From: Candidatus Omnitrophota bacterium
GTDB lineage: Bacteria; Omnitrophota; Gorgyraeia; VGKN01
Assembly: GCA_043800345.1 (NCBI GenBank)
Contig: JAZDNB010000009.1
Span: forward strand, 27,340 to 91,339
Length of the DNA: 64,000 nucleotides
Direction: 5' to 3'
Shown here: in pieces, positions 1-62,499 of the stretch
Layout of the letters: each line of letters starts with the position of its first letter
How positions within the stretch are numbered: position 1 is the stretch's first letter
The notes under the pieces: generated by a model
Told to the model about the DNA's origin: nothing
Databases searched by the model: none
Seen by the model: only the letters and a program-made list of their open reading frames with translations
Translations under genes and position numbers: made by a program

Positions 1-245
1 TAGGGGTAAACATAGATACGAGGGCACCGCCAACGAGGCAAGCCATCGTAAAGCTCCTCGGACCTCTTTCTAACATCATCCTCCTTAGCCTATCCTCATA
101 CCTCCTTGCCAATACCCAGCTCTCAGGGTTCCTCGGCGCTCTCACTATCTGGGTGGTTATCTCTTCAGCGTTCAGCATCGTTGCCTCAGTACGCGGCTAT
201 ACTACCTATAAGACAGGCGACCTCTACGAGGCGGTAGAGCTGCTC
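1..245 (+). repeat. Copy 1 (3' portion only) of the hydrophobic module. The window opens inside this repeat.
   Basis: Encodes GVNIDTRAPPTRQAIVKLLGPLSNIILLSLSSYLLANTQLSGFLGALTIWVVISSAFSIVASVRGYTTYKTGDLYEA. Aligns to 12328-12575 and 14455-14700. Confidence 0.85.
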
Positions 246-24200: not shown

Positions 24201-27200
24201 TTTAAGGATAACACCGACGATATACGGGAATCCTCTTCCCTGTATATCATAAGGGATCTTATTGAATCCGCCAAAGCAGCCGGTATTGATATAACAATCA
24301 GGGCCTATGACCCTAACCCGGGCGCATGTCATAATACGAGCTCAAGAACTATAGCCCAGGGAGGGCTTAAAGAACTTATCGACGAAGGAAGCGTCATAAT
24401 ATGCGACAATATCGAAGAGTCGCTTGAAGGCTCTTATGCGATGGTAATTGCCACGGAATGGAAGAATTGGTCAAGGCAGACAGGCAGACCTTTTGGCTTA
24501 AATGATAAGAAAAATCTAAGATACATAGAGGGACGTTTAAAAGGCAGGCTGATATTTGACGGAAGAAACCTCATCGACAAACCGGCACTGCTGGGGACAG
24601 GTCTTACCTATCACTCTGTAGGTCGGCCCGTCTATTACGGCAATTACATTAAAAATTTTATAAGCTCGTTCATAAATCTTTTTAGGCAATGCACCTTCTA
24701 TGGATATGTAATATACTATTGCCTCTCGACCCCCGGATATCGCAGGTTATTATTCAAGAAGGAAGGTCTTGGCTTTACCCTTTGGGAACTTGGCAGACTT
24801 TCAGCGCTTTATTTGAAAGCAACCTTTGCCTATATCATATATGAAGTTGCCGAGAATAAAGGAGCAAACGGCGACGAAGTGCTTAAGGGAATGGGTTATG
24901 ACAGGCGTATCGGCCCCGAATATTTTAAACCAACTCCGGGTAGAGGAGGCCCCTATCTGCCCACGGCAACGAAACTCCTGGTCCAGATAGGAGAAGATTT
25001 CCTCAAACGAGAAGACATTCCCGACGTTACCGATAAACAAAAGCAGCTTCGAGCCAGGGTAAGAAATCTGGAGTTATTAGCAAGCATCGATAAGGCCAAT
25101 GAAGGCCAGGTTATCAAGGTTATGGCGCGCTTAAGAACAGCCCTCGGCGTTGAAAAGGTTGCCGGCGGAAATATAGCCGTATTAGGTACCGCTTATAAAG
25201 GCGCGGCATCTTCTATAGAAGGTTCTGTCGCCATGCGCATTATCACAGACCACCTTGCCTATTGTAGTAGTATAGTAGTATTTGAGCCTGATCCCGAAGC
25301 AAGGGCCAGGGCAAAGAAGATGCTTAAAAATTCCACCAATGTCATTTTTGCCGAAAACATGGATGACTTAAAGAACAAGGCAAGGGGGGTCGGCGGGTTA
25401 GATGCACTCTTAATTCTCACTGATAATGAGGAATTTAAATTGCTCGATACCTCCGGTATTAGAAAGCGTACCGCCAAGATGGTCGTATATGATACCTGTA
25501 ATGTGACAGATCCGGCGAATTTTACGGACAAACCCCATGTTATTTATATCAGAACGGGAAGACCCATGTTTATGGGAATGGAAGTGCTTCCAAGAAACGG
25601 AAACAGAGGCTCGCCTGTTTTGGCGCGAGCAGCCGAAACCCAGCACTCTCTCTTGGTGTCAACCCTCTATAATAACTTTAATTCTGCCGGCACGATTATC
25701 ACACGGATTGTATGGGGCGTGCTGTGGCTTACTGCATTAGTGACAGTCGGGATAAGCCATGAGTTTACCCATATGATATCCGCCCTTAGCCTGTCCCTGA
25801 AAGTAACAAGAAAACGCGAATTCTACAAAGGCAATATTTCGATTGACGGACCTCCCCAAAGGGTTAATATTGCAAAGGCCCTTGCCCCGCTTGCCGGACC
25901 GTTTATCATCCCGCTTTTCCTAACCGCCGTTTCTTTACTGTTAAATGTTCAAATCGACATACCCAATTGGATAAAAATCCTCTACTTAGGTTTTAGCGTA
26001 GTATCTTTCATATATGACCTGTCGTCCGAAGGAGACCTTGCCGAACTATACCGTCCCCTTAAAGGGAGAGTTCAGAATTTCGCCTCAAAGTTATTCGGGG
26101 CCGATGCGAGCCTATTACCAAAAAAGATAGGATTAGCCGTAGTTATTTTCGGAACTATAGGCCTGCTTAATATTGTTTTAATGTGTATTTTTCTCCCATA
26201 TCCCGATGTATTACTTATTCTCTGGGGTAATTTTGGTTTTGGTGTTTTGCTGTTCATTTTTGCAATATTGGGATGGCTGGATACTCTATCCGAACGCATA
26301 GAAAAATTCTATTACATGCATCTATGGCAAAAAGCGCTCCCCTCATACTATACACACGAGGCTTGGAAGGTGGCAAAGGAAAACAGGGTTATTTTCCCAT
26401 ATCTACACGGAGAGGGAAGCAGGGTATCGGAACCGAATACGTACAAATATTTTACCCTTTTCAAATTCGGCGATCCTGAGGCAATAAGAGAATATTCGGA
26501 ATATATGGCGAGCCATATTCGCTATGACATTTCGTCGGATATAGAACCGGAAGAATCAGAATATTATGATTTTTTTGACCCCGAAAAATGGGTTGTATTA
26601 TCCAAGGTTCACCCGGTTCCACCATTACACTCGACACAAATGCTCGGACGTTTATTAGCAGAACGCCTTAAAGTTAAACTCGTAAGCCTGAACGAGCGCA
26701 GTTCTTTCGGAAACTACTCTAAACTTTCACTGGATGAGCGAGAAAAAGTAGTTTATGGGAATTTGGTTGTAGAAAATCCAGAAGAAGTGCGCGGTAAAAA
26801 TGTCATCATATATGACGATGTGAGTATAAGCGGTTTTACCCTGATGGAAATGGCCCGTGCGGCATTTGCGGCAGGCGCCAGGTCCGTAAGAGCCTATACG
26901 ATGTTTGATCCGAAAAATGACCCGAAGTTTGAAATAGGGGCATATAGATATCTGATGTATGAACATCCTGAACTTGTACTACCTATTTTGCAGAGCGATA
27001 TGTCCATAGCGCAGACAGCCATAAAATATCTGATGCGTTTTGCAAGCGAATCGCCCGATGCCTTTGAAAATTTGATGAGACAGGTGAAAGATGAGCGACT
27101 CAGAGAAATTTTAGATCTCGTTACGTCATACCTGCAAATTACATCAAAGGAAGATACGCTTAATCCTACCCCACTCTTTAACATCATTACATCGTTACTT

Positions 27201-30200
27201 CCTGCTCGTGCCTATGCAGAGCGTCCGGACTCCGAGGTTAAACCTGTCGAGATAGGTTTTGCTGTTACCGTTGATAGAGATGGCAAAACAGAAGTGGATC
27301 ATTCTTTAAATGCAAATGCAATCTTTTCTACGCCTGAGATAATAGAACAAGTCGGTGCTCATTTAGCAAAAGCCGTTGATGATAGTATCGACATAAGCAG
27401 GTTTACGCCAGGTGCATATCCGGCCGGGCTCCATATAGTTGCGCCTAATCGTTCCGGAATGCTGACTGCAATAGCATTAGAGAGACAGTTAGGGTGTTCC
27501 CTGCACCGTTTTGATGAAGATTTTCCATGGTTAAAAAAGGGCGATGCAATAATCATAGCTATAGATAAGCCAACCCGGGAACTTCTTAAGATATTAAAAA
27601 TATGCGAGGCAAAGGGGATTTTTGTAGCAGCGGTTTGTACATTGACAAAAAATAATATCTCTAATGTAGAGAAGTATTTAAAAAGGAAAGGCATTCCTTT
27701 TGTATCTTCACCTCATATTCATACGATGTTCGGGGATTTAAATGTTGATATGCAGGACAGAGAACTCTTAGCACCTTTGTTGACTGGAGAATCTTCTCTC
27801 GGCGAAAGATTACAAGGCCTCAAACAGTTAAAAGACAAATCGTTGCGGGGGACATTGCCAAATGAATTTTGCGATTCCATGTTAACCGCCATGGAGGACT
27901 GGCCGAGTCCTTCGCTTGCGGTATTATACGCTTATCAGATGGGCTATAACTACATTACTTTTACTGATAGGCGGGATATAACGCCTGAAGCAACCAAAGA
28001 GGCGCTCGAGGCCGCGCGAATACTGAAAATTTCCGTATGCAGTCCGTATTATACGACGCTTAAAAGGGCAACGTATTATCCCGAAGAAATTGCTCTGCAA
28101 ACGCAATTGCTTAGCGCCATCCCTGAACTTGATATGTTTCAGAGAAAGGTAAAAGAGTCCCGCGGGGTTCTAAAGAGAGGAATAGAGCACTTAAATAAAG
28201 ACGGTATCACGAGTCCTGATCCATACCTGGCATTATCGGCGCAATATTCAAGACAGATCGAAGAGATTGTGCAAGCCTTATGTCCGGTAGTGCTTGAACA
28301 TTTAAGAAGAACTATCCCCGGATTCAAATTAACAGAACAGGATTTTGCACTCTGCATAGGCGGTTCTGCCGCAGGAAGAACAGCTACATTAGCATCAGAT
28401 TTAGAGGTTGATTTTATTGCACGAGACGAAAAGAGCGCAGATGCCGTTACGGAACATTTTGCACCGCTACTAGCCCAGTGCTTACGAACAATCGGAATTG
28501 AGATAACGCCGCCCGATGACTTATTCCGCGCACAGCTTAGAGAACGCCATCTCATTAAAGTAGATAAGCTATTTGACTATCGGGTTGGGGCGTATTCAGA
28601 GCAGGCAAAAGGTTTAATTCGGGCGTTAAGCTATGAATTTGCGTGGGGCTCAAAAGATGTTTATAGTAATTTTATGGCAAGCGTACCTCCTGAACTTAAA
28701 CCCGATATTCCTCATGACATCATGTCACGTATGACAGAGTTCACCGATGGTTATCTGCGTCTATCCGAAGACGGAGAGGGGGAGTTTGACGGGCGTAATT
28801 TCGTAGTATCTGTTGATAGCGAGCGCGACTTAATAATGAACGTGCAGCGTTCATTAAGAGTATTCCAGATAGGTTTATTTGAGAGCCTGGTAAGGAAGTT
28901 GCCGCAATATCTTATGTCAGGTCTGAATCCATCGCTTACTGAGGATGCAATACCGCGAACTATCCCCGAACTTCTTGTTTTCATGAATGAGAGAGGATTT
29001 TTCGGAGATATTATTCCGCAGCAGGAAATAGAGAAGGTTGTTCTGGCCTGGAAACGTACTATTATGGCGCGCCAGATAAAAGTTGCATTAACAGGTGGGC
29101 TTAATAGTGCAGTCAGCTTAGGACAGTTGCCGCCTACGCTTTTGAATGATTTCGTAATCCTGCACGATTTTATCTTAAGTCATGTGATAACGAGAAGGTC
29201 TATTTTTCAGACTAAGATACAAAGATTATTGGGAGAACTGGCATTTTCCATATTTACACGTCTCATGAGAGATGCAGCGGATACTACTTATGATGAAAAT
29301 AGCAGACATTTTGATATCCGGGGGACTATGCGTCATGCTGTCACGGAACAGTCAAGGCTCTTAGAAGCCGTGCGCTATTTAAGGGAGGCGGCCGCTGCAT
29401 ATGCTGCTGGAGATGCGGAGGCATATGAAAAATCCCTGCGCGCCTACGGCGAATACCAGCGAGCTCTCTATGAAGATTTAAAAATTAATTATAGAAATAC
29501 GGATCCTTCGCTTGAGGTCCTCTGCGAATTCGCTAACAAGCTGCCCAAGGTTCTCGGTGCATCGCATATCCCCGGCTGGGGAGGAAATATCGGTATTTGG
29601 GCAGACGAAAAGGATGTAATCGCAATACGCAGAACAATAACAAACTTTATCCGCTCAGACGGTTATCGTAATGTACTTCAAAAACAATACCCAGATCTTT
29701 CTCCGAAGGAGATAAACGAAAAGGTTATGGCAACCGTTAGGGGAGTTATTATATTTACTCCCGGGCCTGCTGCAAATACCGTGATTGAGGGAGATGTAGA
29801 CAGATTGATAGAAGCCTTAAGGGATCCCAATTCTTCAACAGTTGCTTTATTAAAGAAAATCTACGGAGAAGAAGATACTTACAGGGATGGACAGAAATTC
29901 GCATATTATGAGCTGGCGCGCCAAAGATATCTCAGCTTGCTTGAGGAATTTAAGAGGCTCCATCCTGATGCAAAAAATATTGTCGTATCCCGAAGCGGTG
30001 GCAGGGTTATTTTTGCAGGGACACATTCAGATTATCACTACGGGAGGGTTCTTAATGCACCTACATTATCCGATACTCTGGTTGTGATGGCCATAAATCC
30101 ATTGTCGAATCAGGTTCAGGCAAACACCATGGATGAATTATTCCCGCAAGCCAGTTTTAATCCGGAACGCCTTGATATTATAAACATTCCAAAAGAAGAC

Positions 30201-33200
30201 TTAAACACAACCCAATGGTACCGATATGTCGCATATACGCTTTATTTCCTATCTCAGATGATACGTCGGTCAGAAGGAAGGACTCTCGATCAACCCGGGT
30301 TGTATATCTTAGTTGACGGCAGACCCGAGGATAAGGCACTGCCCGTAGGAGCGGGGCTCAGTTCTTCGGCGGCATTAGACGTTGCAGTTTCAATCGCCTT
30401 CCTTGGGTTAACCGGAAGAAAACTTACCGCAAGCCAGATTACGGCTGCCTGCCAGGAAGCAGAGCATGCCTTAGGTTTCCCCTGCGGAGCACAGGATCCG
30501 TTCGGGGCTATGCGCGGTTGGCTTCCCGGCGCAGAGCCGGATAAAATGTACGGACAGCTTATGGACTGTCTGCCAATGGTGGATGCAGGCGGTAGGCCTG
30601 TTTTTAATGCAGAACTTGTAGAGCTACCACCAGGACTTAATGCCGTATTAATAAATACAGGCGCAAAGAGCCCAAGATGGCCGCTTGAATTTTCCGCAAG
30701 AGTTGCCGAAGGAATGCTGGGTACGTTTATGTTAGCGCATATGTTACGTCAGAGATTCCAGACTCAGTTTGACGGACTTCTCAGAGAAGGCGATATGGAG
30801 GAAAGATACTATAGCGATGAAGCAAGCGGTGTCAGGGTAAAACCCGAAAATGCGGGAACATTCCCCTTATTTTATAAACCTTTCCTTGTTTCTTTTCCGG
30901 AACTAAGAAGACTGGGAATAGATATAAGCGAAAGAGAGCTGGCGCATATGATAGATATGCTGCCAAAAGATATGACCAAGGCGCAACTGGTAAAGATTCT
31001 GGGATGGTTACTGTATAACGATCTTTTTGCTTTAGGCGGGCTTAAAGAAGAAAATGTCGATGCTGTGTTTACGATGCTTGCAAAAGGCATTGAGGCAAGT
31101 TTCGACGGCAAAGACTTCGAAAGAGAACGATTGGAAGAGCTAAAAGCTGCGATTAGAAATGAACTAAAAGCGCAGGTAAGCATGCAGGAATTAGAACCTC
31201 CGTCTGCGTCAGTAACAGTTTTTGAAGAATCAAAAGTAGCGAAAGCCTCAGAAGTAGAAGAGAAAGATATAAGAGGCGTAATAAGGGATGATCACGATAG
31301 GCTTTATTCCGAAGCAATGGGGGAGGCATTGGCATTGAGGGCCGTAACCCAGCCCACCAATGTGGTTATATGTCTTACTACGTATGAAAGCGCGGAGTTT
31401 ATAGAACGAACACTCGATGAAATCATGAAAGAAATAAAATACTTCCCCAATTTTTACCGTGTTCAGATATTTGTGTCTCCAAACGGACCGGGATGTAATG
31501 AGATAACAAGCCGAATACAAGAATTTTTCCGCACCAGGGCGCCCGGTTTTGCTTCCCGTGTTTCTGTCTTGCCGCTTACCTTGGGAGGACAAATGTATGC
31601 ACAGCAGTCGATGGTCAAGACGATTAAGGCGCATCCAAAATTTTTCGGGGAAAATCCGATGTTATTATGGATAGAAGATGATGTAAGATTTCTAGACGGT
31701 TCTCTCTATAAAGTTGCGGAAACGTTAAGGACACAGACGATAGAAAAACGCCAGGCCCTCCTTGTAGGGTGCCGCAAAGTCAGGCTTAATCCGGAATCGG
31801 TAAGACAAAAACCGCAAGGGATTTTAAGAAGAATTATGGGCTCAGTCCTTAACGGCAGCGAAAATGAGGATTCGCTCACCAGGACACAACACCTTTCGCG
31901 GGCTATCCCTTCCATGACAGGTTCGAACCTGGCGTTATGGGCTGATGCATGGCCTCTTCGAACATACGATGCGCTTCTCTATAATAAGGTTGGCATTTAT
32001 CCCGATACCGTGCTGCTCAATCTCTTTCATCACTCGGTTCCCGAAGCGGGCATGCGTACCATACCGGTTGAAGATGCAGTAGTATATCAACTTTCGTCGA
32101 GTTCCTTTAGTGAGCGTTTGAGCCGTGAGACAGCTCCCCGCTCAAGAGAAAATTATTTTCCTGTAAGACACGGAAGGATTCTTATAAGCGGTACTCCTCA
32201 TCCGCTTGACTCACTGAAAACGCGTATAACAGTTTTCCTGCGCTACCTCGTCTATGCATACCTGACCGAGCCAACGAGGCGCCGCATAACAAGATCCGGT
32301 TTGACAAAAAGTATAGAAGAAGCCACCTGGACAAGGGCGCAAGAAACATTGGATTGGTCTGACAAAAATACGGATGTCATTCAAGTCAGAACCCTGGATT
32401 CTCATAGACCCGAACATCGTATCCTGCAAGAAGGGATTACTTTTACACAACAACTGTTAGCATATAAATATGCTAGAGAAGATAGGATGGTGCAGGGAGG
32501 AGAAAGATTTGGCATACGTGCAAAGGAAATAGAAAACTCGCCAGCTGCAACATTAGCTATACGGGTTATGAACAAAACACTTAGCCGCCTTAGGAGGGAA
32601 TATCCTCACTCCCGATATAGTGTCGATGACTATAAGCATCTTTTGGCGTATTCTGTACTTGCGCAAGGCTCGCCAAGCGAGATCAGGGCGTTTAAGGTAT
32701 TTTTATTGTCAGGGATGAGTGCAAAAGCAATGAAAAAACGTATTGTCGAAATGCTGAAAAATGGTTTATATGACCTGGTAGAACGCGAAATTCTAAATAT
32801 AGTGGATGCCGATACTATAGATGATGTTCTTCCTTATACGATAGCATATGATAATACTATTTCGCCCAAAAAACGCATAGAGATACTGCTTACCTATCTT
32901 ACTACGGGACAACTGCTTTATAAGGCGGAAGAATTAATCCCTGAAAGATTAGCGCAATCGTATGCAGATATATATAATCAATATACGAACCCTTCAGGGA
33001 AGTGGTTATTTAAAACTACCGATGCGGTATCGTGCGCGCGGCTCTTTAAAGCAAAGCGGCGTATCGCCAAAGGTAACATGGCAGCGGTTGAAAAGTTAAA
33101 CAGAGAGTTTATCCGAGGGTATTACCAGCTTAACCCAAGACAGCGAGCGCAATTAAGTTTGGCACTTCTTAATGAAGAAAACCCGCAATTGTTAGAGCGG

Positions 33201-34280: not shown

Positions 34281-34297
34281 TTTTATATTGCGAAATA

Positions 34298-34326
34298 TTG
34301 AAAGTTATAGCAAAATAAGGTATAAT
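34298..34326 (+). promoter_or_regulatory. Sigma70-type promoter for giant gene 2: TTGAAA (34298-34303), 17-nt spacer, TATAAT (34321-34326)
   Basis: Consensus hexamers with optimal 17-nt spacing in a 146-bp AT-rich intergenic region. The ATG is at 34427. Confidence 0.55.
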
Positions 34327-34426
34327 TTAAGTATAACATATTTTAAACATTACTATTATGTAGTTTTAATTAACTTTTATAATTGCATAAATAATTATAC
34401 ATAAATTTAAAAGGTTAATCCTAGAT

Positions 34427-37400
34427 ATGATAGACTGGCAAACAGGAAATAAAAAATTTTGGATTCGCATAATAGCCATTATAATAGCCGAGGTTTTCTT
34501 TTTCACCGGTTTTGACCTTCCATGGGAAACTAATAGCCTGGCATACGCGGCCAGCGAAAAACTAGTTCCCCCCCTTAAGACCGATAAGGAAGGAACGGAT
34601 AGCAGAGAGGAAAATAGGGCAAATGTAATTAGTGCGTCTCTCCTTGTCTATTCGGAACTTTTCCCTCAATTATCCCCCCGCGAGATAATGCAGAAAGTTT
34701 CTAATGAACTGTGTTTTCCCATCACCTGGTACAATGCAATGGGTACCTTTCTGGAAGAGGAAAATGTTAACCCCCGCCATTATATTTTTGAAATTGGAAA
34801 TAAATATTATGAAGTAAAACTGGACATAGTAGAAAAAACCGTGATACAGCATCTAAGAGAGGTGCAACAAATAGTTATGGCACAAAAAATACAGCAAGGT
34901 GAATTTGTGTGTTTAGCTGATATTGTGCCTCAGGGATTGTTGACCGAAGCCAACCAAGGTAAGGCCAACATGAACATTTCCGAAGTAACCCTTCCGGAGG
35001 GAGTACACACTGTATTTAAAGTTGATGACGAAGGAAACATGAATATGGTATCGCAAGATGCGTTGCTAGAAGAAGCCAGAGAGGGCGTAGAATATAACAG
35101 CCTGTTTTTAAAAGTAGGTACGGTTGCCTATATAGTTTTATTAAGGGTCGGACTAGGTGCCGTAGGACCGGAGAATTTACCAAAAGAATTAGTAGAGATT
35201 ATCGGCACTAAAGCAGTAGAAGAATTATTGGCGTTAGATATGGCAAGACATGAAGAGCTTGGTTCGCTCGATGCTCCTTTCGTGCTTCGGTTCATGGATG
35301 TAACTGCTGCCTCTGAAACTCATTTTATGCTTGTAGAGAGCAAGGGAGGAGCGCTCCTGGATAATGAAGCGCGAAATATAACGGTGCTTGAAGTTGAAGC
35401 GGCGAATGTTGATTTTCCAGAATGGATGTGGCCGCGGCCTCACTCACCTCCGCAAGAGAACTCTTTTTTAGTCGCAGTTCTTCCTATCAAGCTTTCTATT
35501 GCCTCTACTACTACGGTAGCGGGTCTATCTGAAGATAAAGATTCAAGAAGAGAAACTGCGGGATTTCCTTCTCAAGATGAGGCCCTTCAACTTGTACAAG
35601 AAGCAAGTCAACATTTAAAAAGGGATGGTATAGTAGCGATTGGAAGTGACCCTTCCAGCATGACTTTTTTGGCGCCACAAGCTGTTGACTCAAAAGCCTC
35701 ACCGCTTCAAACCATACATCCTCAACAAACAAGCAGTGCTATTGTTAATGTTTCAAACACTGCGGCAGCAACTCCTGAGTTGCAGATAATAACCAGTACA
35801 ATAACGCCATCTCAGGAATTTACACCACCCACAGCCACCACAGCAGCCGTTTTCCCTGCAGGAACCACAACTCTTTCTTCTCGACTACCCACGGACATAG
35901 CCGGCACAGTAACATCATCGCAGGAATTTACAGAACCTGTCACTACAGTTCTATCTGCAATATCTCCTGAGGCATCAGTAGCTTCTCCCAAACCGCAAGT
36001 AGCAGTCACTTCAGTAACGCCGTCGCAGGAATTTGCAGCACCCATAGCCGTCGCAGGAGCTGTTATATCTGCAGAAACCACAACTATTTCTCCTGAACCG
36101 CGAGTAGTAGCTAGTACAATAGTACCATCGCAAGAATTTGCGAAGCCCACTGCTACAGTAGAAACCGTTATATCTCACACTATTCCTGTTCAAGCAATAT
36201 CTGTACCTCTAGGAGAAGGGGTAAGAGAGAGAGCTCAAAGAGCAATTACACCTTTAGCCGAGCGATATAGACGAGAGTCGCTAAAGATGCGCGAAAAATT
36301 GAATACATATACACCGCTTGAAAAGGTGTTGTCCGAAGAAATCCTGCCCGAACTAAAAAGATTATTTACACAATATCTTGAACATCCTGAGACTAGCAGG
36401 GAAAGTGGGCCTATTGCGGCGTTTCTTGTTTCTGGAGAAAGCGGAAGCGGGAAGACAACAAGTGTGAAACTAGCCAAAGAATTGTTTATTAAGGAATTAA
36501 CTGCTCTTGCCCTTAAAAAAGGCCGACAAATCGTAGAACCCGTTCTGCACTTACTTTTTGATGACTATATGTTACAGCAAGAAGATAGACCTATTGATCC
36601 CGCGACAGACAAAACTACAGAAAATCCACTTGAGAAATTTCAGATAGAAAGATTCCTGAAAGATTTGACAGCCCTCTTAAAAGGAAAAACAATCTATAAG
36701 CCCGTGTTTGATTCTGATACCAGAGGCCGTGTTAAGTTTGGATTAGATGATAGGGGGATATATGTGGTAAGCGGCTATGTTAAATTTGGTGATGAACGGA
36801 AAGAACTTAAATGTTATATAGAAGTAGATAGTCACACGCAAGTACCTTATCTTGTATTCGAAGGTAAACGATATACAGAGATGCCTTTTAGCTCAATCCC
36901 GATATCCGTTCGAAGGAATGAAAAAGGGAATATCGTTGTCAATATCAGGGGGAGCGATAATGTGATTATTAGTAATGAAGCAGGAGATATTTTTGTTTCT
37001 GCGGGTGATGTCAAGAGAACTCTCGAAAAAGAGAAACAATTAGAGGCGCTTGAAATAATATCACCCCAGGACAAGGTATTGATTATAGAGGGAATTTTGA
37101 CACTTTTTGATAAGGATTTGTGTGACAGATGCCTCACTATGGCGGTGAGAGGAGATTTTGATGCGCGCATACTACGCCAGCTTATCAGAGCGAGTAAAGA
37201 AACAGGACGTAAAACAAGTGACGAGGAATTTATTCGGCATCGTATCGAACTGGTAAATCAGGAAGAGGTTCCCTATGTTATTCCTACACTGAAAAATGCA
37301 CAATGGACTGTTACTACTCTCTCCCGCTCGGAGGCTATTTATGTTTTGTATAGGCATGGACAGCTAGAAAATCCTACTGCCAAGGTTCGCGGTGTCCTTA

Positions 37401-40400
37401 GACAATTAAGAATAGATCCTGCCGATTTAATGAAAGATTTACGGGATGTATATTTTGATGTGATTAAGGCCAGGTTAAGAACCGGGGGCGGTATAGAAAG
37501 CGAAACCACTGGCACTTCATTCAAGGTATTTATTGATACCGCAGGTCTGGTAATCAAGGTTCCTTTGGCGTCGTTTAGAAAAAAATTTGAAGATGAATTT
37601 ACCTCATTTTTCAATACCATTCTTAAAAAGAGGTTGGGCGGTATTATGGTACCGGGAGCTATAGTTAATTTAGGCACTGGCGGTTTGGGGCTTCATGTAA
37701 AACGATATGTAGGAAATGAAGAGAGGGAGCTGGAATGGGTTCTTATTCAGAATAGAGTAGAGCCACTGCGTACAAGGATTACAAGACTGGTTGCTCATGG
37801 TAACATAACCAAAGCCAAGCGGTTAATAGACCAGTATTTTGCACTTCAAAAAGAAATGTGGGCGCGGGGAGTTTTAGACACAGATCCAAAATTTATGGAA
37901 AAATACGGGCTCATGATTATTAACGGAGAAGAACGCTTGGTAGTGATCGGGGTAGACGGTTTGACTGCCAATGCCGATTTGTATGATCAGGAATTATATA
38001 GAAAAGATACTATACGTCCTGTTCATAAGAATCTCCCCTCTGTTGAACTTTTACAATATTATTACAAACAAGCAAACCAAATGCCATCTAAGGAAGATTT
38101 TATAGCGCGTCATTTTGAAACAAGAGAAGGAATGAAAAGAGCGCATACAGTGCCCGACATATCGGATATTGAAATAGCAAAGGAGCAAATGGGCCTTATT
38201 GTCTCAAGAGTAAAAGATGCTAAGATAAAAAGATTAAGAGAACTTTTTAGGACCATACGTTACGGCGCTGACAATCCATTTATTTACTGGGTGAAATTAT
38301 ATCTGGATACTATGTACGCCGATGCACCCCAATATAAAGTTGTAAATTCCCTCTACGAACAACTATTAAAATCTCCGAGTCTGATAGGGGCAGGACGTAT
38401 TGACGTTACATCGATAAGCGACTTAATTAAGGCTATGCCTCAGGCTGCTGAGTTGACCGCTTCTGAAATATACAATATTGCTGATGATATAAGTTCTTAC
38501 ACTCTGCTTCCAACAACAGAAAGTAAATCGGTAGCAAGCGCTCCTTCGTCCATCACAGCCGTCTCATGGCCTAATTTTATTGCGGGGGCATTAGCGGCAG
38601 GAATTATAATCATCCTGCAATATATGAATGTACTCCCTTACCAATATCTCGGCCTTATAAGCTTTATTTATTTTATTTCATTTTTGATTATCCACGAGCT
38701 TGGCCACTGGAAAGATACCGGATTTAGGAAATTTCCTCTCGGGGAACTTTTCAGTAAAGAAGGTATCTCCATACCGGGCTCGGAGGGCCTTTCGGGTATC
38801 AGGATTTCTTTTGCTTTCTTTATCGCCTCCATAGCGTTATTTGCGCTCTCTGCGATTTTCTTACCCCATTACGCAATATATCTTCTGCCCGCCGTTATCA
38901 TAAATTTTATCTATGCTGCTTCAATAGGAGATTGGAAAGATACACTGGCTAAAGTTCGGTTATCAGAACTCCAAAAGGGTACGGTAACCGCAGAAGAAGA
39001 TATTACCTTTTCAATAACAAGGGATTTTGCACAGAAATTTGTGCAAGGTGTCTATGATAATCTTGTGCCCGATGTTCTTAAACGCGTACGGGAAGGCGCA
39101 AGATTAAAACCGAGCATAAAAGAGGACGTGTTTAGTATCAATCCGATGGATGTCTCGGAGAATAGGCGTCTTATGAACAAGGCGCTTGATGATCTAATTG
39201 AGCATGAAGGGGACAGTGTTGAATTTACCATCCTTATGGGAGGACTGGCATCCCGCATGAGGAAAGAGCCTCCCGGAGAGCCTACTCAGGCATTGTTGCG
39301 GGATTATGTAACATGGTTATATAGCCAAGGGTTTGACCCCTTCGCATGGCTTCAGGAACGTTTGGGTATCTCGATAGATAAAAACGATATTAATGCACTG
39401 GCCTTAAATTATCCCACGAAAGGCATAATGCCTGTCGGCGTAGACGGGGAAGGCAGGTTTATCACCAAGGTCGGGGAATTTGCTATCGGTATTCGCAGGT
39501 TACAGGAACTTGTGAATGAAGAACGCAGAAGGCGCGGTAAGGCCGGGAACCCTATTAAATTCAAGATTATTTTAGCCGGAAACGAAGAGGCATATGATGC
39601 GGTTATGGATTGGGACCTTAGGGTCAATAATTACTATGGCCTTGAGCCCGGTCAATTTGAGCCTGCCAATGAGGTATTAGGGCGTTCTTTCGTATCCACG
39701 CCGGAATATGTGATGCGATATGCAGAAAATTTTGGCGGCCGTGACAGCGAAAGGTTTAAAAAAGCCATGCAGGCCGCAGAAGAGAGAAAAGGGGAGGTAC
39801 TTCCGGAGCTGACACCCTGGGGTCATGCTGAGTTTTTAATTCAGACCATCTCAAGCGGCCGCATTATAGAAAAAGCGAGGCGCGGTGCCTTTGCAAACTT
39901 TGTGCGCAATGTTGATAATAGCGGTGCAAAGATTGACTGGATGTGGCTTGTGGAATACGGAAAGGCCCTTGAGGCTCGCGAGCAGGGCAAGGAAATCGGC
40001 TTGGCCCTTGAAGTGAGCCAGCGTCCGCAGGGCGCAAGCGGAAAAGGCGGAGGATATTTTAAACTCGAAAAAGATGGGGAAACCCGCGATATTGTCCTTG
40101 AAGATTCGATATTGCAGATGGTGCGGAAGAATATCCGTCAGAGCGATTGTGCGCAGCTTGAAGAGAGAGGGTTTCATGTTGTTGTCGTTAGGGAGTATGA
40201 TTCAAAAATTATACCGAAGCTTGAGACACAAAAAGCTATGGTGCTTGATGCTTCCCAAGAACTTATTGACCTTCTTCCGGAAGAGATTATAACTACTCGC
40301 GGTACGCGATTAACTAAAGATAAAGTTTTAGAATGGATAAAAGAATACGGGAACACGCTCCCGCTCAACAAACGGCTTGAGATTTATTATAACCCGCAGA

Positions 40401-43400
40401 CAAAAGAAGTTGTGGCATATGAACAGCTGGTAGACCGCAGCTCATATTATGTAAATAATGCGGTAGGCACACTCTTCTGGGATGTTATATTAAAAGATAT
40501 TTTTGGATCATCGGTTGAAGAAATACTTGCGCTGGAGTCTCTTCCTGCGCAAAAGCAAAGGGAAGAGCTGCACAGAATAGCGGAACAGGGCCGTGTTAAA
40601 GCAAATCTTATTTTTGAACCCAAACCGCGCGTTACCGAAGACGAGGTAATCCCCATTATCCGCCCGGAAGGCAATATGTGGGACCTCTTAAAAGCAGTGC
40701 GGACGCTGGTGATAGGAGTAGAGTCGACCGAATCAGCGGCGCGCTCTATTGCTATGGATCCGGAAAATTCCAGGAGTTATGAAGAACAGACCCGTTTTGC
40801 GCCTGTCAAAAGCTGGCTGGATTCTGACCTGTATGCAAAAGATCTCAATAAGACCATCCTTGATTATATGCTTTACGGAGATATTTTCAATCCTGCTTCG
40901 GCCCTGCCCTATCCCCGTAAGGCTCAGGAAATGAGCATAGCGGAACTTTTAGTGGAATATCTTCACAAGGTTCCAGGTTCGGAACATTATTTTGATCACC
41001 CTCTTATGCGCGAAAATTTAATCTCTTATTTAGACGGCAGTCCGCACATCGCCGTTCCTTTAGCGTCTACTTCTGAAAAAATCAAGGTATATGCGGTTCG
41101 TGCAGACATGGGGGTTATTCTTATTGCGCTCAATCTCGGAGAATTTACATATCCGGATCCGCGCGACGGCCGCCAGAAGGCATGGACCTCGCTTTACGGA
41201 AGGAAGAGCATTGAAACAGTGTTGGGCAGAGAGTCATTGGATGAATTGGGAAGCGTTTACCAGGCACAGGATGTTGTTACCTCAGAGGTTTATAGAAGGT
41301 ATACCGTCGCCGATTTAGTAAGAGACGGTCTTGATATCGGAATACCGGAACCCGGTATTCATATAGTACGTTTGACTCCCACAGGCCAGATCAATGAAGG
41401 CGTTGTTCAACCGGTTCCCAGCGAAGATTTTTCTGATATCCTTGCCCTTGCCGTAAAAGGGGCAGTAGCCGGAGAGTTGACGGCAGCCGAGAAGATAGGC
41501 CAAGAAATTTTGAGATTATCCGAAGAAAATCCCGCTCTGCTTAAGACAAAACTGCAGGAGATTACCCGCCTTAGCCCGGAACGTGCGCAGGAAAAATTCG
41601 GATCTGACGGAATATGTGCGGTTATGGCATTAATAGCCACAGTTATACCCGACTTATTGATTGATATGAAGGATTGGAATAGAGAAACATATGATGCCCT
41701 GAGCGATATAGTTACCTATAAAGACAATGCCGATTTATTCAGAGAAGGAAAACTTACTATCCACCTGACAGATCGCAAAACTGCCCTTGTGATTTCCAAG
41801 TCATTTAAAGACAGGCGTCTTTTTATCCCCATACACTTTGCATCGCGTCCTTATCGCCTTACTGACGGTAAAGCATGGTTTAGGATATTGGATCTGGACT
41901 CGGTAGGCGTGTATTCAGACAGGACGTGTTACAGGGTCTATGATTATACGCTTATGCACGAAGAAGGGAAAAGAGGCGGTTTTTATGCTACAGAACATGT
42001 CGGTGAAGATCTTGTCGAGAACGGCTGGGCAATAGGAGTTCCCGTGATTAATGTCGGGACAAAGACAGAGCAGAATGCCCCGCTTCGTTTCCAGATTTTA
42101 GAACTTTACAGGGTGAGTATTGATACGACGTTGACTGGTCCTAGAATTATGGCCGAGATAGTATCTTCTGCTAGCATGCTTACACAAGGGAGAACGTTAA
42201 GAGATGTATTACACAAAATCTCTTCCGTTATTTCCAGATTACAAGTTAGTATCAGTAATCCAAAGACATTACGTAAGCTCTTCTTCTTGCTGGTAATAAG
42301 TGGTTTTGTTTTATTCTTATTAACGGGATGTGCTCCGACCCCGACCGTTAGCGAGAAACCGTTTCTTTTAACACTCATGGAAAATACTGTTAAACTAGCG
42401 CTGTATCTTATTGCAATTGCTGTCGCTGTCTTTGCCGTGATTATTTATGCTATTAGCGGGTTAATAAGCGAAATTATACGTCTCTTTGTAAGAAGAATTA
42501 TGCCCCTATTGCGATCTAGCATTAAAAAACAATCTCCCCATATAGATGTTACAGGACCTCCGCTTCCTTCAGGCCCATTATTTGAAAGATTGTGGGAAGG
42601 AATAGGAGAGTTAACCCCTGACTGGGAAAGAATGACTCTCGTAGCCAATGTGGTACTTGAGCTTATGCAGGCTCGGGAAGAACCGGTGGCACTCGATGAT
42701 CTTTTAGGCCCGTGCCTTGCCCTCCTTAGTGCACATGGTTTTTTTGACACCCCTGTTAAGGTCAGTGAATTATTACATCGCCTGGTAGCGTGCGGTGCGC
42801 TCAGGGAAGAAGGCGGAAGATATGCACTGGCATTACCGGCGCGCATAGTTGCGGTTAAGACAGATAATGTGTATTACATACTAAAAGATATTAAAACTGC
42901 ATTGGACAATATACGAGGCAGAAAACAGGAGGCCTCGGTTAATTTAGAAAATATTATCAGAGAGTATGCGCAGGCAGCTGAATTATGGCCTATGTATCCG
43001 CTAGAGAATCGTTGGCCTATTTTAAGAGCGGTGGCCCTGCTTGATAAAGCTGACCAAAAGCTTTTGATACGCTTCCTTAAATCAAAACCGTCATTACAGA
43101 AATATTACCTTGTCGATTCAATACTGCTTATGTGTAAGGAATTGTCGAAAAATTGGCTTAAGACCCAGGCTTCTCATTTGATAGGACGTACTGTTTACTA
43201 TATAACCAGCGAGTGCTGGCATCTTGCAGGGGGGCTTGGCCGCGTATCGCAATATCATACTGCGGCAATGAAGCAATTGGTCGGAAACAATGCACAAGTT
43301 GCCACAATAGAGCCGTACTATCGTTATAGGCTTAATAAGAGCGGTGAATTAGAAGAAATTGATTACGGTAGTTTACCAATACCCGTTGAGGATCTTCGAG

Positions 43401-46400
43401 CAGAGCCTATTTTTGAATATGAAGTAACCGTCAAAGGAAAACAGGTTACTGCGCAGGTTTTTAAGGGAAAAAATAAGTTAGGTCTAGAGGTTTATTTGAT
43501 AAGAGACAAGGAAGACTATTATACGCGGATGCTCTATAGATATAGTCAATATGGTACGGCAAGCTGGGAAGAATTTTCCGAGTTCATATCCAGAGCCTCG
43601 CTGGAACTAGTAGAGCGGTTAGAATCCGAAAACAAAAAGAAAATGGGAAACAACTGGAAGGCGCCCGTGGTCATTGCAAACGACGGACAACTGGGGGTCT
43701 TTCCTCTTTTCAGGCGTATGCATTATGCCGCAAGCGAGATATTTGGCAATATCCTCGTTTGGTTTGTTACGCATACGTATAAAAATAGGGGTGTTTTTGA
43801 AGGCCGTGATGCAACCGGCCTGGGCTTAAATAATGCGGATAGGGCAAGTACGGTGAGTGCCGTAATCAGAGATGATGTTGCGCCGCGCGATCCGCAGGTA
43901 GCATTAACAGCAGTAACAAACGGCGATAATAGGGAATATTCGGCAAAGGTATTCAGGGAGATATTGCTTGGTTTATTCCCCGATGCGGATGTAGAAGAGC
44001 CTACTATAGAACAGATAATAGCCGCAAAACAGGAAGCCAAGCGCAGGTTAAATCTAAATCCCGACCAGATTGTAATCTCGTATTCCGGCAGGCTTGTTGA
44101 AGAAAAGGCGGGACGTAAAAGGGCATTTACAGATTCCAATATACTGGATTGGGTCAAAGCAGGGGCGCAGGTGATTATCTATGGTAATGTGCAGGCGCAC
44201 ACACAGGCTATGTACGATGATCTGAAAGCACTTGAGGCAAGATTAAATACAGCAGGTTATCCCGGGAAACTTATCGTAATGACGGGTTGGGGCATTACCG
44301 AACAGCTTGATTTATTAGCGGCAACCGATATCCAGGTCCAGGATTCTGACCGTGCGACAGGGGCCTCTGAATATACCGAGGCAGATATCTCGGCTAACGG
44401 AGGACTGCAATTTGGTCCGCCCTGGCTTGAGGGAATCATACAGCGCCAGGGTGTTGTCTTAAACCGGAATGTTGCCGGTTGGGGTAACACGATAATTCCG
44501 AGGGATTATTCACCCGAAGCATATTTGGAAGCGCTTATGTGGGCAGTGAGCACTTTTAAAGAAAATCGTGAAAAATTTGCCGCATACCAGGCTACCTCGG
44601 TAAGGTTAAGCCGCATATTGGAGGCATTATTAACGGGCGCGGAATATCTAAGACAGTGTGATAGGGCAGTGCGCCTAAAAGAAAACCCGCTTGAGCTCTT
44701 GACAGATTTTATTAAAGGAGACAGGGATGTTGAAAGGTATTTAGGGACCGAACGTACAAAAGCAGATTTAGTGGGCTATTTAGACGCTAATGCCTCGGCA
44801 ACACCCAGGGAATTTCATGAAAAAGAAACTGCGATTTTCCCGCTCAAATCCATGGCAGAAAAAATCAAACTATATGCCGTGAAACTTTCGGGAGAAGTTT
44901 TTATCGTTGCCGTTAATACGGGAGAATTCCAATATCAGGGTCAGAAGATAAAAAAGGCATGGAGCCTACTTTATTCTACGCAGAGCCTTGAAGCACTCTT
45001 AGGAGGGGAGGATATCTATGAGCTCTTTAACGTATATCAGGTCGAAGATGCGGTATCTACCGTAGGCGAGCTTTATGGGCGCTATGCGGTATGGGAATTA
45101 TTAGACCGCGGCCTGTCTATCGGTGTACCTGAGCCGGGGCTGCAGATTCTGAGGCTAAGAAGAACCGAAGAAGTAAGAAAAATGCCGAAAAAAGAAATTG
45201 TAAAACAGAATATCCCGAATATGATAGCAGCCGCAATCAACGAAGAGATTATAGAAGGAACCAGCTCGCCTGCGGAATTGTTAACCCATATCATCCCGCA
45301 GTATGTCAACCGTCCGGATGAACTAAAAGATATACTGAGAGAAATTTCCGGCCTTGCCCTTGATGATGCGCGTGCGATGTTTTCCGAAGAGGGGATTCCC
45401 GCAGTTATGGCATTTGTCGGTTTTCTCGTTCCGGAACTTCTTGAGGAGATGAAGGACTGGAATAGCGAGGTCTATAGTATGCTTGATTCGGCGATAAATA
45501 ACGGATTAAACCGGGATTTATTCAGGGAAGGAGAAATCGGATTTCACAAGGCAGACAGAAACACTGCCCTTGTGCTTTCGAGGACTCTTAACGGCCGTCG
45601 CATATTTGTCCCCATCCATTTTGCGAAAAAACCGTATGATGAAGCAGAAGGCAAGGTGCGCTTTAAAGTAGACGGAATGGGTGCGTTGGGTTATGAAGGG
45701 CAAGCTACCCATACGATATTTGACCATATCATGCGATCCTTTTATCCTCCACTATATACCGGTGATGATTTAGCGCGCGGATGGAGGATAGATATTCCCG
45801 TGGTTTCAGGCAAGAAAGATACCAATGGTTTTATTCAGCACGGATGGCGTTTTCAGATTTTGGAAATAGACGCACCCGTGAGTGCGTGGGATATTGTTGA
45901 TCAATTAGGCGAGAGTGCCGCGTCAGCATTAGAATATTTCATTACACCAAGGCAGGCGAAAGACAATAAAACTATTTGTCAGATTGCAACGAGGTTTGTC
46001 GGGCCGTGGGATGAAATAGAGACAAAGATACTTTCCGAGGTAGAAACATTGGGGCTGCCTAAAAATGCCCTTGTACATCTTGTGGGCGCGCTTCCCGTTG
46101 GAATGATGAGCCACAAGTTGAATGATTTCCAGATACCTCATGATGGCAGGGCGACAGGTTTATATTGGTTGGACGTAGAGGGTAAAGGCAAGGTCGTTAT
46201 TAAAAATCCGTATAACGGCCAAAACGGCATGACTGCTTCAATGTTTTCCATTACTGATCCGGCAGGGAACAAGGGTAAGATAGCGTCCATCGCTGCAAAA
46301 TTACATGAGGCAGGGTATCGGGCAGTAATTGATTTTGCCGGTCATGTGGCGGTTGACAGTCCGATTGTTTTCGAACATCCGGATTGGTTTAAGCCATATT

Positions 46401-49400
46401 TACTTGGAGGCAGCCAGGATATTGATCCTGAGCTTATTGACGCCGAAATATTAACAGCATCTAACGGCGAGGCATTCTTATTGTATCTTGATGATAGAGA
46501 CGACAGATGGGCGGATATTTTTAGACGGAATCAGAGTCTGAGCTGGGGGCATGTAAAAGGCCAGCCTCATAAAATCAGGGTTTTGTTAAGGCATCATACG
46601 GGTATCGGCCCCATGAGCGATACCGCAAGCCTCAACTGGGATTTGCCCGAAGTAAGAAATTGGGCGATAGGTATCCTTCGCGGGTGGCACGATGCGGGGA
46701 TTGACGGTTTTCGATGTGACCTTGCGCAAAATGTCCCCGATATATTCTGGAGAGAAGCAAGAGCCGCTTTATCTGGGGCAGTCTTTTTGCATGAAGATTA
46801 TGCTTCGAGCGAGCAAAAAAGAATAAGGCAGACAGTAACGGGCGTAGATGGTTTTTATAACCATGAGCTTTATAATGCCATGCGCGAAAAAAATCCTCAG
46901 CGTATCCGAGATTTACTCGCTCAGCAGGCTTCTTACCTGCGGCATTTAGTCAATTATATGGGCAATCATGATGAGAAATTGGCATTAGCGATTTGCGGAG
47001 GGAACAGAGACCGCCTTATGGCGGCCGAGACAATTATCCAGACCTTGCCCGGTTATAGTATGTATTACTGGGTGCAGGCAAAGGGATGGCAGTGGCAGGG
47101 AGAAGAAATCAAAAGAGAGCTTACCTATGAATCTTTTATGGCACTCTCGGAAAAAGAGAAAGAAGACCCCGCGGTTTTAAGCGGATATAGAAAATTAGAG
47201 AAAATAACGGATCAGCCCTTGTTTAAGGATAGTGCCGAGATTACCGTTCTTGAGTCAGATAACCCTTCTTTTGTAGCATATAGAAGACATTGCCTAAGCG
47301 AAGAGTTCCAGGATGAAAACGCCGTAGTTATTGTTAATTATTCTGACAGCGCAAATATCGGAACGGTTAAATTAGTCCCTGAACAATTGGGCGCTCCCGG
47401 GGGGGCAGAAGAGCGATATTTTTTCCTTTACGATACTATCCAGGATAAGTTGTACCTCTATACTGACAGTGAACTAAGAGATTTCAAACAGAATCTGGTG
47501 CCATGGGAAAGCAGGGTATATCTTGTAAGAGAGATTCATAACCCAAGCGAGGTACTTAAATCGTATAAACGCGGTTTAGGAGATATTAAACTGTTGAATA
47601 TAGAAAAATTATCAGAGCAATCCCTTCCGGTTAGCCAGAGACTGTTACTTCAGGCTGAGATTGGGAGGTTCGTAAAAGATGTCGGGACGGGAAACGGTAG
47701 TTTTTTACAAAAGATGGAAGAAGTTTTTGGTTGGGAAAAAATTGATTGTGACGAGGCTTCCAATATCTTTGCACTTTTATTGCAGGAAAAATTCAGAGAA
47801 CTCGGCTATGAAATTCCGATTTCAGCAACAGGTTCAGAGAGAATACAGTTTATCAATATGGAGGTCCAATCGGTTGCAGTACGCCCCTGGCCGCATTATT
47901 GCATTGTTGTATATTGGGATAATAAACCATGGCTCTATATCGACTCATCTTTTTCCAGATTCTTCAGGTATGACAGAGAACATACCTATGAGGTTTTATG
48001 TGAACCTCTTGACTCGGTAAGTGCATCTCGGATAGAACAAATCATAAGACAAAAAGGTGTCGAGGTGGGTATACTTACGGTTAATGCGGATGAGAAATGG
48101 CATGTACCCTCTTTTGATTCTGCCGCTGTCAGGGATACGGTGATGAAAAATGCGAAGATGCGAGCCGTACTTATGTGGTTTTTACACTCTGCACCAAGAG
48201 ATGAAGAAGAGGTAGCGCCCGCGCAAGCGCGTACCGAGAGAAAAGAAGAAAAAGCGCGTTCTGCCGTATCCTGGGTCAACATTGGCGTTGCAAGCCTTGT
48301 AGTGGGCGTCATTGCTATTCTGCAATATATGAATGTACTCCCTTACCAATATCTCGGCCTTATAAGCTTTATTTATTTTATTTCATTTTTGATTATCCAT
48401 GAGCTTGGCCACTGGAAAGACGCCGGTTTTAGAAAATTTTCCTTCGGTGAACTCTTTACCAGAGAAGGTATCTCAATTCCCGACTCGGAAGGCCTGCCGG
48501 GGATTGTTACAAGTTTAGGCCTCGTCTTCTGTTTATCAACCCTCTTTGTGGTGTCATCTTTATTCCTGTCGCACTATTCAGCGTATCTTATTCCCGCAAT
48601 TGTCATAAATTTAATTTTTGCCTTATCGGTAGGGGACTGGAAAAAAGCACTCATAGAGACAAAGATTGACCGTCCCCTGCGTATACTCACCCCTCTTGGA
48701 AAACGTGCGCGGTTAATAATAAACGAATATGCCCCGTTCCTGCGCAGGGCGGTTACTCATCTTAACGATAACCAGATAGGGCTTATCAGTTTAGCTGCGC
48801 TGGCCGTACTTGGTGCGCTCGTTATAGTGTTGAGAGTTGACGTGTATGCGGTGCCCTTAGCAGGTCTTAGTATACGCAAGGTTTCAACTAACGGCCCCGG
48901 CGGCGATACCGATAGTTCTTCCGCAAATGCCTTGGCCGCTCATATAAGGCAGGAATTCGGAAAACCAGAGCTATATCTTAATAAGCCCGCATTTACAAAG
49001 CAGGAAATACGCCAGCTTCTTAGTTTGCTTCCGAGCATGAAGAGCCGCATGAGGTATATAGACCAGATAGTAGAACGTATCGTGTATGCGCGTAGAATAA
49101 AAGAATTTGAATCGCTTGACGATTTGCGGGTAAGGGCGCGCCTGCCTTACCGAGTAATGAGAGATTTTGAGCTTTTAATTACCGGCGGCGTGCTTATGGA
49201 TGTCCCCTTGGGGGAAAGAAGGCTTGTGCATAAGAGGGCCGTAAGAGAGCCGTTAAGCGAAGAGGTTATTAGTACGGGCCAGATAGTTTCAGAAAGACTT
49301 TCTCAAGAGACAGAGCGGTTGCGCGACATATTCAAGCTTTTATCCGCCGTCGGTAAATCCGAGGATCTTCCTCGCGGTATAAGAGATGAATTGGAACGCA

Positions 49401-59579: not shown

Positions 59580-59608
59580 TTGACAAAATGAAAGGAGGTG
59601 CATATAAT
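59580..59608 (+). promoter_or_regulatory. Sigma70-type promoter for the efflux-like operon: TTGACA (59580-59585), 17-nt spacer, TATAAT (59603-59608)
   Basis: Perfect consensus hexamers with 17-nt spacing, about 150 nt upstream of the TTG start at 59755. Confidence 0.6.
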
Positions 59609-62454: not shown

Positions 62455-62499
62455 AATTTTGTATAATGATATCTCAATAAAGAATACGAGGAGGTAAAC

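Follow-up and report, generated by a model that had tools for sequence, protein, structure and literature searches.

Site-2 proteases (S2Ps) are defined by a three-helix core in which the HExxH motif and the aspartate of the LDG motif stand on separate helices, and they free cytoplasmic domains from their membrane tethers (PMC10202637). The giant proteins of the Omnitrophota, which include a multi-enzyme type (PMC10066038; bioRxiv 10.1101/2023.11.21.568195; 10.64898/2026.06.07.730766), have been proposed earlier to be cleaved, via soluble C39 and S8 peptidase domains (bioRxiv 10.1101/2023.11.21.568195). The main text of that preprint and of 10.64898/2026.06.07.730766 mentions neither M50 nor HExxH, and a full-text literature search combining Omnitrophota with "site-2 protease" found no paper. 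The subject of this analysis is a window of 64,000 nucleotides (nts) from a Candidatus Omnitrophota bacterium (assembly GCA_043800345.1, contig JAZDNB010000009.1, positions 27,340 to 91,339 of the forward strand), in which two giant open reading frames (ORFs), p1 and p2, follow one another. The second carries two copies of a domain of ~135 residues and four helices that resembles the S2Ps in sequence profile and apparently in predicted fold. On our reading of the sequences, the p2 modules would represent a divergent member of the M50 clan, a new family that should not be filed under PF02163.

Both giant ORFs lie on the forward strand. p1 (3..34280, frame 3) is stop-free from nt 3 and runs past the left window edge, with more than 11,425 amino acids (aa), and p2 (34427..59404) encodes 8,325 aa. 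By Pfam, the enzyme domains of p1 comprise HEAT, GT4/GT1, ARMT1-like, UDP-glucose dehydrogenase, PRTase, galactokinase/GHMP and PfkB; those of p2 comprise PRK/uridine-kinase-like, GT5 starch-synthase-like, alpha-amylase-like and two metallo-beta-lactamase domains, preceded by a signal-anchor-like helix at the N-terminus. In both proteins, the enzyme blocks are separated by clusters of hydrophobic helices. In length, in their unrelated enzyme Pfams and in their multiple helices, p1 and p2 match the multi-enzyme giant protein type described for Omnitrophota and belong to it. Like the giants known as "multi-enzyme metabolic cluster" and Archaeovorins, they are very long ORFs that fuse sugar and nucleotide enzymes and hold many membrane helices. 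Across the ~19,700 residues of p1 and p2, HExxH occurs exactly three times, against a composition expectation of 0.28 + 0.18 = 0.46: once in p1 (GISHEFTHM, aa 8536, nt 25758) and twice in p2 (LIIHELGHWKD, aa 1423, nt 38693, and again aa 4658, nt 48398), in each case on the forward strand. Each of them falls at the C-terminal end of a 19-residue hydrophobic window; only ~5.7% of residues are in windows of this kind. An earlier note, made from the sequence alone, had placed three HExxH motifs in predicted membrane helices, and this is borne out, each of the three sites ending a predicted helix. Because the two sites in p2 are paralogues, the three amount to two independent events.

Module A of p2 (38552..38965, + strand, aa 1376–1513) is an S2P-like four-helix domain with HELGH at nt 38693–38707 (aa 1423–1427), G1457 and S1461 of a GxxxS motif, N1493, S1499, and D1502 at nt 38930–38932. 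Module B (48257..48670, + strand, aa 4611–4748), the second copy of the domain, has its HELGH at nt 48398–48412 and its aspartate, D4737, at nt 48635–48637. The two are 63% identical over 136 aa, and module B scores 127 bits against a family hidden Markov model (HMM) built from external members only. The GDWK that the earlier note had seen behind every HExxH follows the two p2 sites only (aa 1501 and 4736), while p1 reads EGDLAE. Its estimate of about 115 nts of near-identical DNA between the p2 copies was roughly right: the shared tract (38615..38713 and 48320–48418, + strand) spans 99 nts with one mismatch, holds an 80-nt perfect run, covers helix 2 and HELGH, and is flanked by DNA that is ~55–60% identical. 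Synonymous differences between the copies affect 4 of 35 conserved codons inside the tract against 30 of 51 outside, and this low synonymous divergence indicates gene conversion, apparently a recent one, between two stretches of a single gene that lie 9.7 kb apart.

When 1.84 billion representative proteins were searched exhaustively with an HMM, 11 of them matched (E 3e-25 to 7e-4), all long multi-domain proteins or fragments; their named sources are mostly Candidatus Omnitrophota metagenome-assembled genomes (MAGs), one other being labelled Elusimicrobiota. Two further Omnitrophota MAG loci carrying the module came from a genome scan; the same scan profile had no match in metagenomes, and neither had a pattern-based scan of genome and metagenome contigs with the two-copy p2 alignment. 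A word-indexed protein search, run with the p2 module and with a 16-sequence alignment, returned nothing, yet it missed long proteins contained in the very collection that it indexes (such as P0002 and P0005). With an M50 query it returned only matches of <200 aa, and its negatives are not trustworthy for domains of giant proteins. The family as assembled comprises 17 copies, of which 16 are aligned and the last is that of protein P0008. With p2 aa 1376 counted as residue 1, the 16 aligned modules, 21–60% identical to one another, share invariant H48, E49, H52, G82, S86, N118, S124 and D127. The same motifs recur in P0008 around a loop insertion of ~65 aa, and HExxH is invariant in all 17 modules. 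It is the loop after HExxH that takes insertions, the other being a proline-rich one of ~25 aa at locus L007 (6–461). The invariance of the catalytic glutamate argues for catalysis, not for metal binding alone.

The family is bound to large proteins. Two or more copies are carried by 4 of the 12 proteins, and the two complete host genes (5,918 and 4,972 aa) stand within arrays of very large genes, one of 15,781 aa. No clearly stand-alone copy of the module was found among the 1.84 billion representatives. The only short match, P0008 (244 aa; L001 895–1629), lies on a contig of 1.4x coverage among same-strand ORF fragments, and on these grounds is probably a broken giant gene. In BLAST comparisons the module is the sole region common to p2 and the homologous proteins, and therefore behaves as a shuffled domain. 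Together, the lack of a clear stand-alone copy and the repeated copies per protein suggest a function tied to the giant proteins themselves. Further variants of an HExxH within a helix were seen in two Omnitrophota homologues, P0001 (aa ~1815–1960) and P0007 (~1925–2100 and ~1220–1390): HEKGH...GGPLAS...FADDG, HEILH...APMGP...SLSSDL and a degenerate HGRIH copy, which combined reach 51% against M50 by hhalign. Conceivably, several subtypes of S2P-like module exist.

A kinship with S2Ps is indicated by sensitive profile comparison and not by curated models. None of the window modules (the three with HExxH, and two HExxH-less relatives in p1, TYKTGD modules 2 and 3) finds M50 in Pfam even at E ≤ 10, and no module reaches the Pfam threshold of the Peptidase_M50 or M50B HMMs, the families through which the earlier note had proposed to recognize them. 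The family profile, in turn, has as its best Protein Data Bank (PDB) match 3B4R, the S2P of Methanocaldococcus jannaschii (mjS2P; MJ0392, MEROPS M50), with an E-value of 0.0021 (0.028 without the p1 HExxH module) and an alignment that extends from helix 1 through HExxH and the hairpin to G(P)xxS. Against a reference profile of 17 bona fide PF02163 proteins, hhalign gave the family 91.2% with the p1 HExxH module and 92.4% without it (E ~1e-6 to 5e-7), lining up HExxH with HExxH and GxxxS with the AGPLVS of the M50 proteins; the real score of 46.9 compares with 10–25 for reversed and column-shuffled controls. The second core motif of M50, reportedly defined by Kinch et al. in 2006 as G(P)xxN/S/G, has its counterpart in G82-x-x-x-S86, invariant in the p2-type family at the start of helix 3 and set against AGPLVS by HMMER as well as by hhalign. 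The candidate third ligand lies in the invariant N118-x5-S124-xx-D127 at the cytoplasmic end of helix 4, on the same face as HExxH, its register relative to the M50 motif being of low confidence; this takes the place of the canonical LDG or NxxPxxxxDG motif that the earlier note had in view, which is absent.

AlphaFold2 on the 16-sequence alignment produced a model (pLDDT 90, pTM 0.76) in which a strand at the N-terminus precedes four long helices, with a small hairpin behind HExxH and a charged helix at the end; a model from three sequences only was of poor quality (pLDDT 53) and was set aside. The predicted order of elements would begin with a short strand and helix 1; helix 2, which ends in HExxH, then leads into a small beta-hairpin (G-I-x-I-P-G), and after it come helix 3, starting with G-x-x-x-S, and helix 4 with N, followed by S-x-x-D. 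This order matches mjS2P through helices 1–4, from the strand to the asparagine and aspartate of helix 4, and the spacing from histidine to aspartate is similar, at 79 residues in the module and 94 in mjS2P, the latter on a numbering consistent with the profile alignment to 3B4R. Unlike mjS2P, the module has four helices and a charged helix, with the gating helices 5 and 6 missing; its third motif reads N-x5-S-xx-D(W/L) instead of N-xx-P-xxxx-D-G; and, in the copies recovered, it stands not by itself but within proteins of 1,000 to >11,000 residues, often several times over. Identity in the structural alignment is ~21%, and the match stays below Pfam thresholds. With RseP and SpoIVFB (PF02163) the modules share the idea of a three-helix catalytic core, HExxH and an aspartate ligand, in the modules a candidate one, being carried on separate helices (PMC10202637); unlike these enzymes they come without PDZ, CBS or canonical LDG, and with no evident site-1 protease or regulator partner. 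Membrane proteases of minimal, helical build with an HExxH are known in the YydH/LiaK type of RiPP pathways and the daptide HExxH protease (NF058609, NF041824), and in Peptidase_M50B (PF13398). The YydH/LiaK type and M50B are the only weak named matches of single modules, all far below curated cut-offs, and YydH/LiaK-type enzymes differ from the module in being small proteins of their own, with separate precursor peptides as substrates.

Charged residues suggest how the module sits in the membrane. Over the 16 modules together, the loop that follows HExxH holds 68 lysines and arginines and the stretch behind helix 4 holds 54, compared with 2 and 0 in the other two loops; the positive-inside rule would put HExxH, D127 and the two ends of the module on the cytoplasmic side. 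We infer from this distribution an in-in topology, a cytoplasmic placement in agreement with S2Ps and fitting for the nucleotide-sugar and kinase enzymes on either side. A module that enters and leaves the membrane on its cytoplasmic side would tie the enzyme blocks before and behind it to the inner membrane, and would at the same time place a His-His-Asp zinc site and the catalytic glutamate at the cytoplasmic face. Behind module B, 36 residues on, lies a lone, strongly hydrophobic helix (48776..48832, + strand, aa 4784–4802; Kyte-Doolittle 2.87, no charged residues), which is possibly a substrate in cis or a topology switch.

The HExxH module of p1 (25656..26066, + strand, aa 8502–8638) is probably a distant relative of this S2P-like family, judging by profile comparison. 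It has a three-helix core with only one helix ahead of HExxH, HEFTH at nt 25758–25772, an AGP (G8582, P8583) within a second motif, AGPFI, that partially matches G(P)xxN/S/G, and an S-E-G-D with D8628 at nt 26034–26036. Three more predicted membrane helices follow (26112..26291, + strand, aa 8654–8713), homologous to the three helices after TYKTGD module 2. Compared by hhalign with the family from which it had been removed, the module alone reaches 91.8% (E 7e-7), in an alignment of 92 columns that runs from HExxH to GD. The score of 41.5 stands against 13 ± 3 for window shuffles and 23 ± 5 for shuffles that keep HEFTH (maximum 36.6; 0/60 reach the real score), and other helix clusters of the window score ≤20 against the family. 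Pairwise Smith-Waterman comparison with the p2-type modules is not significant, hhalign directly against M50 gives 16.9%, and the module alone has no match in the PDB. A bona fide M50 HMM run unfiltered over all 21,099 residues picks out the three HExxH modules and one trivial match only, and on the p1 module aligns both HExxH and AGP, but at ~0 bits. The M50 or S2P-like nature that the earlier note ascribed to all three sites thus stands for the p2 modules, and for p1 is probable only, on the hhalign result of 92% with its controls set beside HMMER and pairwise comparisons that are not significant. A grouping made by eye of the p1-type module with the HExxH variants of the homologues proved unsupported (hhalign 0.9%), and a comparison of that group with the family was discarded as circular, the p1 HExxH module being in both.

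p1 also carries the TYKTGD modules, named for a motif in them. There are three, not the two counted earlier, one being cut by the window start: module 1 (3..254), of which the C-terminal part is present and the motif-1 region falls outside the window; module 2 (12150..12593, aa 4000–4147), which has ISH-YLIGN for HExxH and keeps GPLSN in motif 2 and TGD; and module 3 (14277..14720, aa 4709–4856), 80% identical to module 2 and likewise without HExxH, all on the + strand. The earlier description of these modules as degenerate relatives in which SHYLIGN replaces HExxH has held up: MAFFT reproduces the alignment, BLASTP relates module 2 to the p1 HExxH module at E 3e-5 (27% identity over 181 aa, reaching through the three further helices), and a window-shuffle test of the p1 HExxH module against TYKTGD gave z = 3.2. 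Their GPLSN is the canonical form of the second motif. A profile combining the p1 HExxH and TYKTGD modules shows no similarity to the PDB, M50 or the p2 family, the rows without HExxH diluting the signal. Having lost HExxH, the TYKTGD paralogues would be catalytically dead relatives.

What the modules do is a question on which we take a tentative position, held at somewhat less than even confidence: that the p2 modules are a domain derived from the S2P core, or sister to it, within the giants, most likely an active metalloprotease that cuts them, and that the p1 module is a divergent relative. Copies of the domain, often several per protein, are inserted in very large multi-enzyme proteins that come mostly from Omnitrophota, and each copy would enter and leave the membrane on the cytoplasmic side. 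An active protease so placed would cut membrane-proximal or membrane-spanning segments of the giants, in cis or between copies, and such cutting would release or separate enzyme blocks; the TYKTGD paralogues, their zinc site lost, would serve as anchors only. Zinc binding, catalysis and the substrate are here putative, read from conserved residues and from context, and self-processing of the giant proteins is plausible. The giants would be the most economical substrate, given the strict association of the modules with giant proteins. A bolder proposal, and in our judgment a doubtful one, is that Omnitrophota giants are true bacterial polyproteins, whose modules first tether the enzyme blocks to the inner membrane and then, on its cytoplasmic side, cleave adjacent membrane-proximal segments in cis or between copies, freeing defined enzymes. 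NS2 of hepatitis C virus, the membrane autoprotease of a viral polyprotein, offers an analogy only: it is a protease embedded in a long chain at the membrane and cutting that chain itself, as the modules would be, but one of unrelated fold and chemistry, and from another domain of life.

Several observations count against this proposal of an active, self-cutting S2P relative. The sample of homologues is small, at 17 copies. All 16 aligned members remain sub-threshold against curated models, the best E-values being 0.039 for M50 (two members) and 0.062 for M50B (one member); NCBIfam thresholds are likewise unmet, with YydH/LiaK best at E 0.016 (4/16 members), and Foldseek found no match in the PDB at E ≤ 0.001. 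The modules contain no NxxPxxxxDG or LDG, a functionally important proline is gone with it, and the register of motif 3 against M50 is of low confidence. Pfam scans of p1 and p2 show no PDZ or CBS domain, and no site-1 protease is evident. For the p1 HExxH module, HMMER gives only 6–7 bits against the family, which is not significant. Under simple hydropathy analysis, the whole-chain topology of p1 and p2 comes out inconsistent; p2 has a single N-terminal helix and a lone strong helix after module B, and the p1-type modules have only one helix before motif 1. Finally, as the TYKTGD modules attest, the loss of HExxH from an anchor can be tolerated.

The last of these points leads to the alternative that survives best, though in our view an unlikely one: that the modules are S2P-derived anchors or scaffolds that no longer cut and merely fasten arrays of cytoplasmic enzymes to the membrane, their His/Glu/His/Asp cluster forming a structural metal site or serving some other non-proteolytic role. 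The retention of TYKTGD paralogues at 80% identity without HExxH implies that anchoring alone is selectable; the missing proline and DG of canonical motif 3, the lack of accessory PDZ or CBS domains, and an in-in topology of every module that suits tethering all fit such a role. It has more difficulty with the catalytic glutamate, which is not a ligand and is nonetheless invariant in 17/17 copies, as N118 and S124 near the putative active site are likewise; pseudo-enzymes usually lose such residues, just as the TYKTGD modules did. Less probable still, and improbable in absolute terms, is that the modules are active S2P-like proteases for which the giant is merely a carrier and whose substrates are proteins other than the giant, such as remnants of signal peptides, regulators tethered to the membrane or further membrane proteins. 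Among small relatives with a name, the closest, of the YydH/LiaK type, do process separate peptides, and known S2Ps cut anti-sigma factors, pro-sigma K and signal peptides in trans (PMC10202637), but copies recur within single giant proteins, P0008 is the only short match among 1.84 billion representatives, and the window shows no gene for a regulator-like partner close by. That chance alone put HExxH into unrelated hydrophobic anchors is scarcely credible, and for p2 effectively refuted: the motif is short, the p1 site has weak family support by HMMER and the two p2 sites, paralogues sharing a gene-conversion tract, are not independent, but three sites stand where 0.46 were expected, all within the small share of residues near hydrophobic helices, HExxH is kept across 17 homologous modules, profile and fold matches lead to S2P, and the p1 HExxH module scores against the family above all 60 of its HEFTH-keeping shuffles.

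The remainder of the window provides the setting of the two giants. On the 3′ side of p2 (59755–63852) lie genes for a TolC-like outer-membrane protein (899 aa; AMIN and UVR motifs) and an HlyD-family membrane-fusion protein (450 aa), a pair that may belong to an export or efflux system with its inner-membrane component encoded outside the window. Sigma-70-like promoter matches were seen at 59580–59608 (a perfect 12/12) and, upstream of p2, at 34298–34326 (11/12). Both giants contain internal repeats. In p1 there is a 79-aa tandem repeat, 68% identical (15441–15950), and a duplicated UDP-glucose-dehydrogenase-like block (23841–25577); in p2, two pairs of ~400-aa blocks are 31–37% identical (40943–42175 with 44693–45922, and 49919–51166 with 53981–55195), and one of these pairs carries the metallo-beta-lactamase domains. 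Positions 12001–14000 are the only 2-kb bin in which GC skew and AT skew are both negative, a shift probably owed to T-rich hydrophobic codons in TYKTGD module 2 and in the cluster of helices behind it, not to a strand switch.

For Omnitrophota giants, which reach >100,000 residues, the underlying question is whether they act as one continuous chain or are divided into separate pieces. The module is a concrete, conserved candidate for a cutter within them, previously invisible in that Pfam does not detect it, and it provides a specific, mutable handle on whether bacterial giants are polyproteins; the family profile could in addition improve the annotation of giant genes. For the M50 clan, its diversity would be extended to a core of four helices that occurs solely as an insert in larger proteins. 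If the proposal of self-cutting giants is true, intramembrane metalloprotease chemistry would serve polyprotein maturation, a use undescribed in cellular life.

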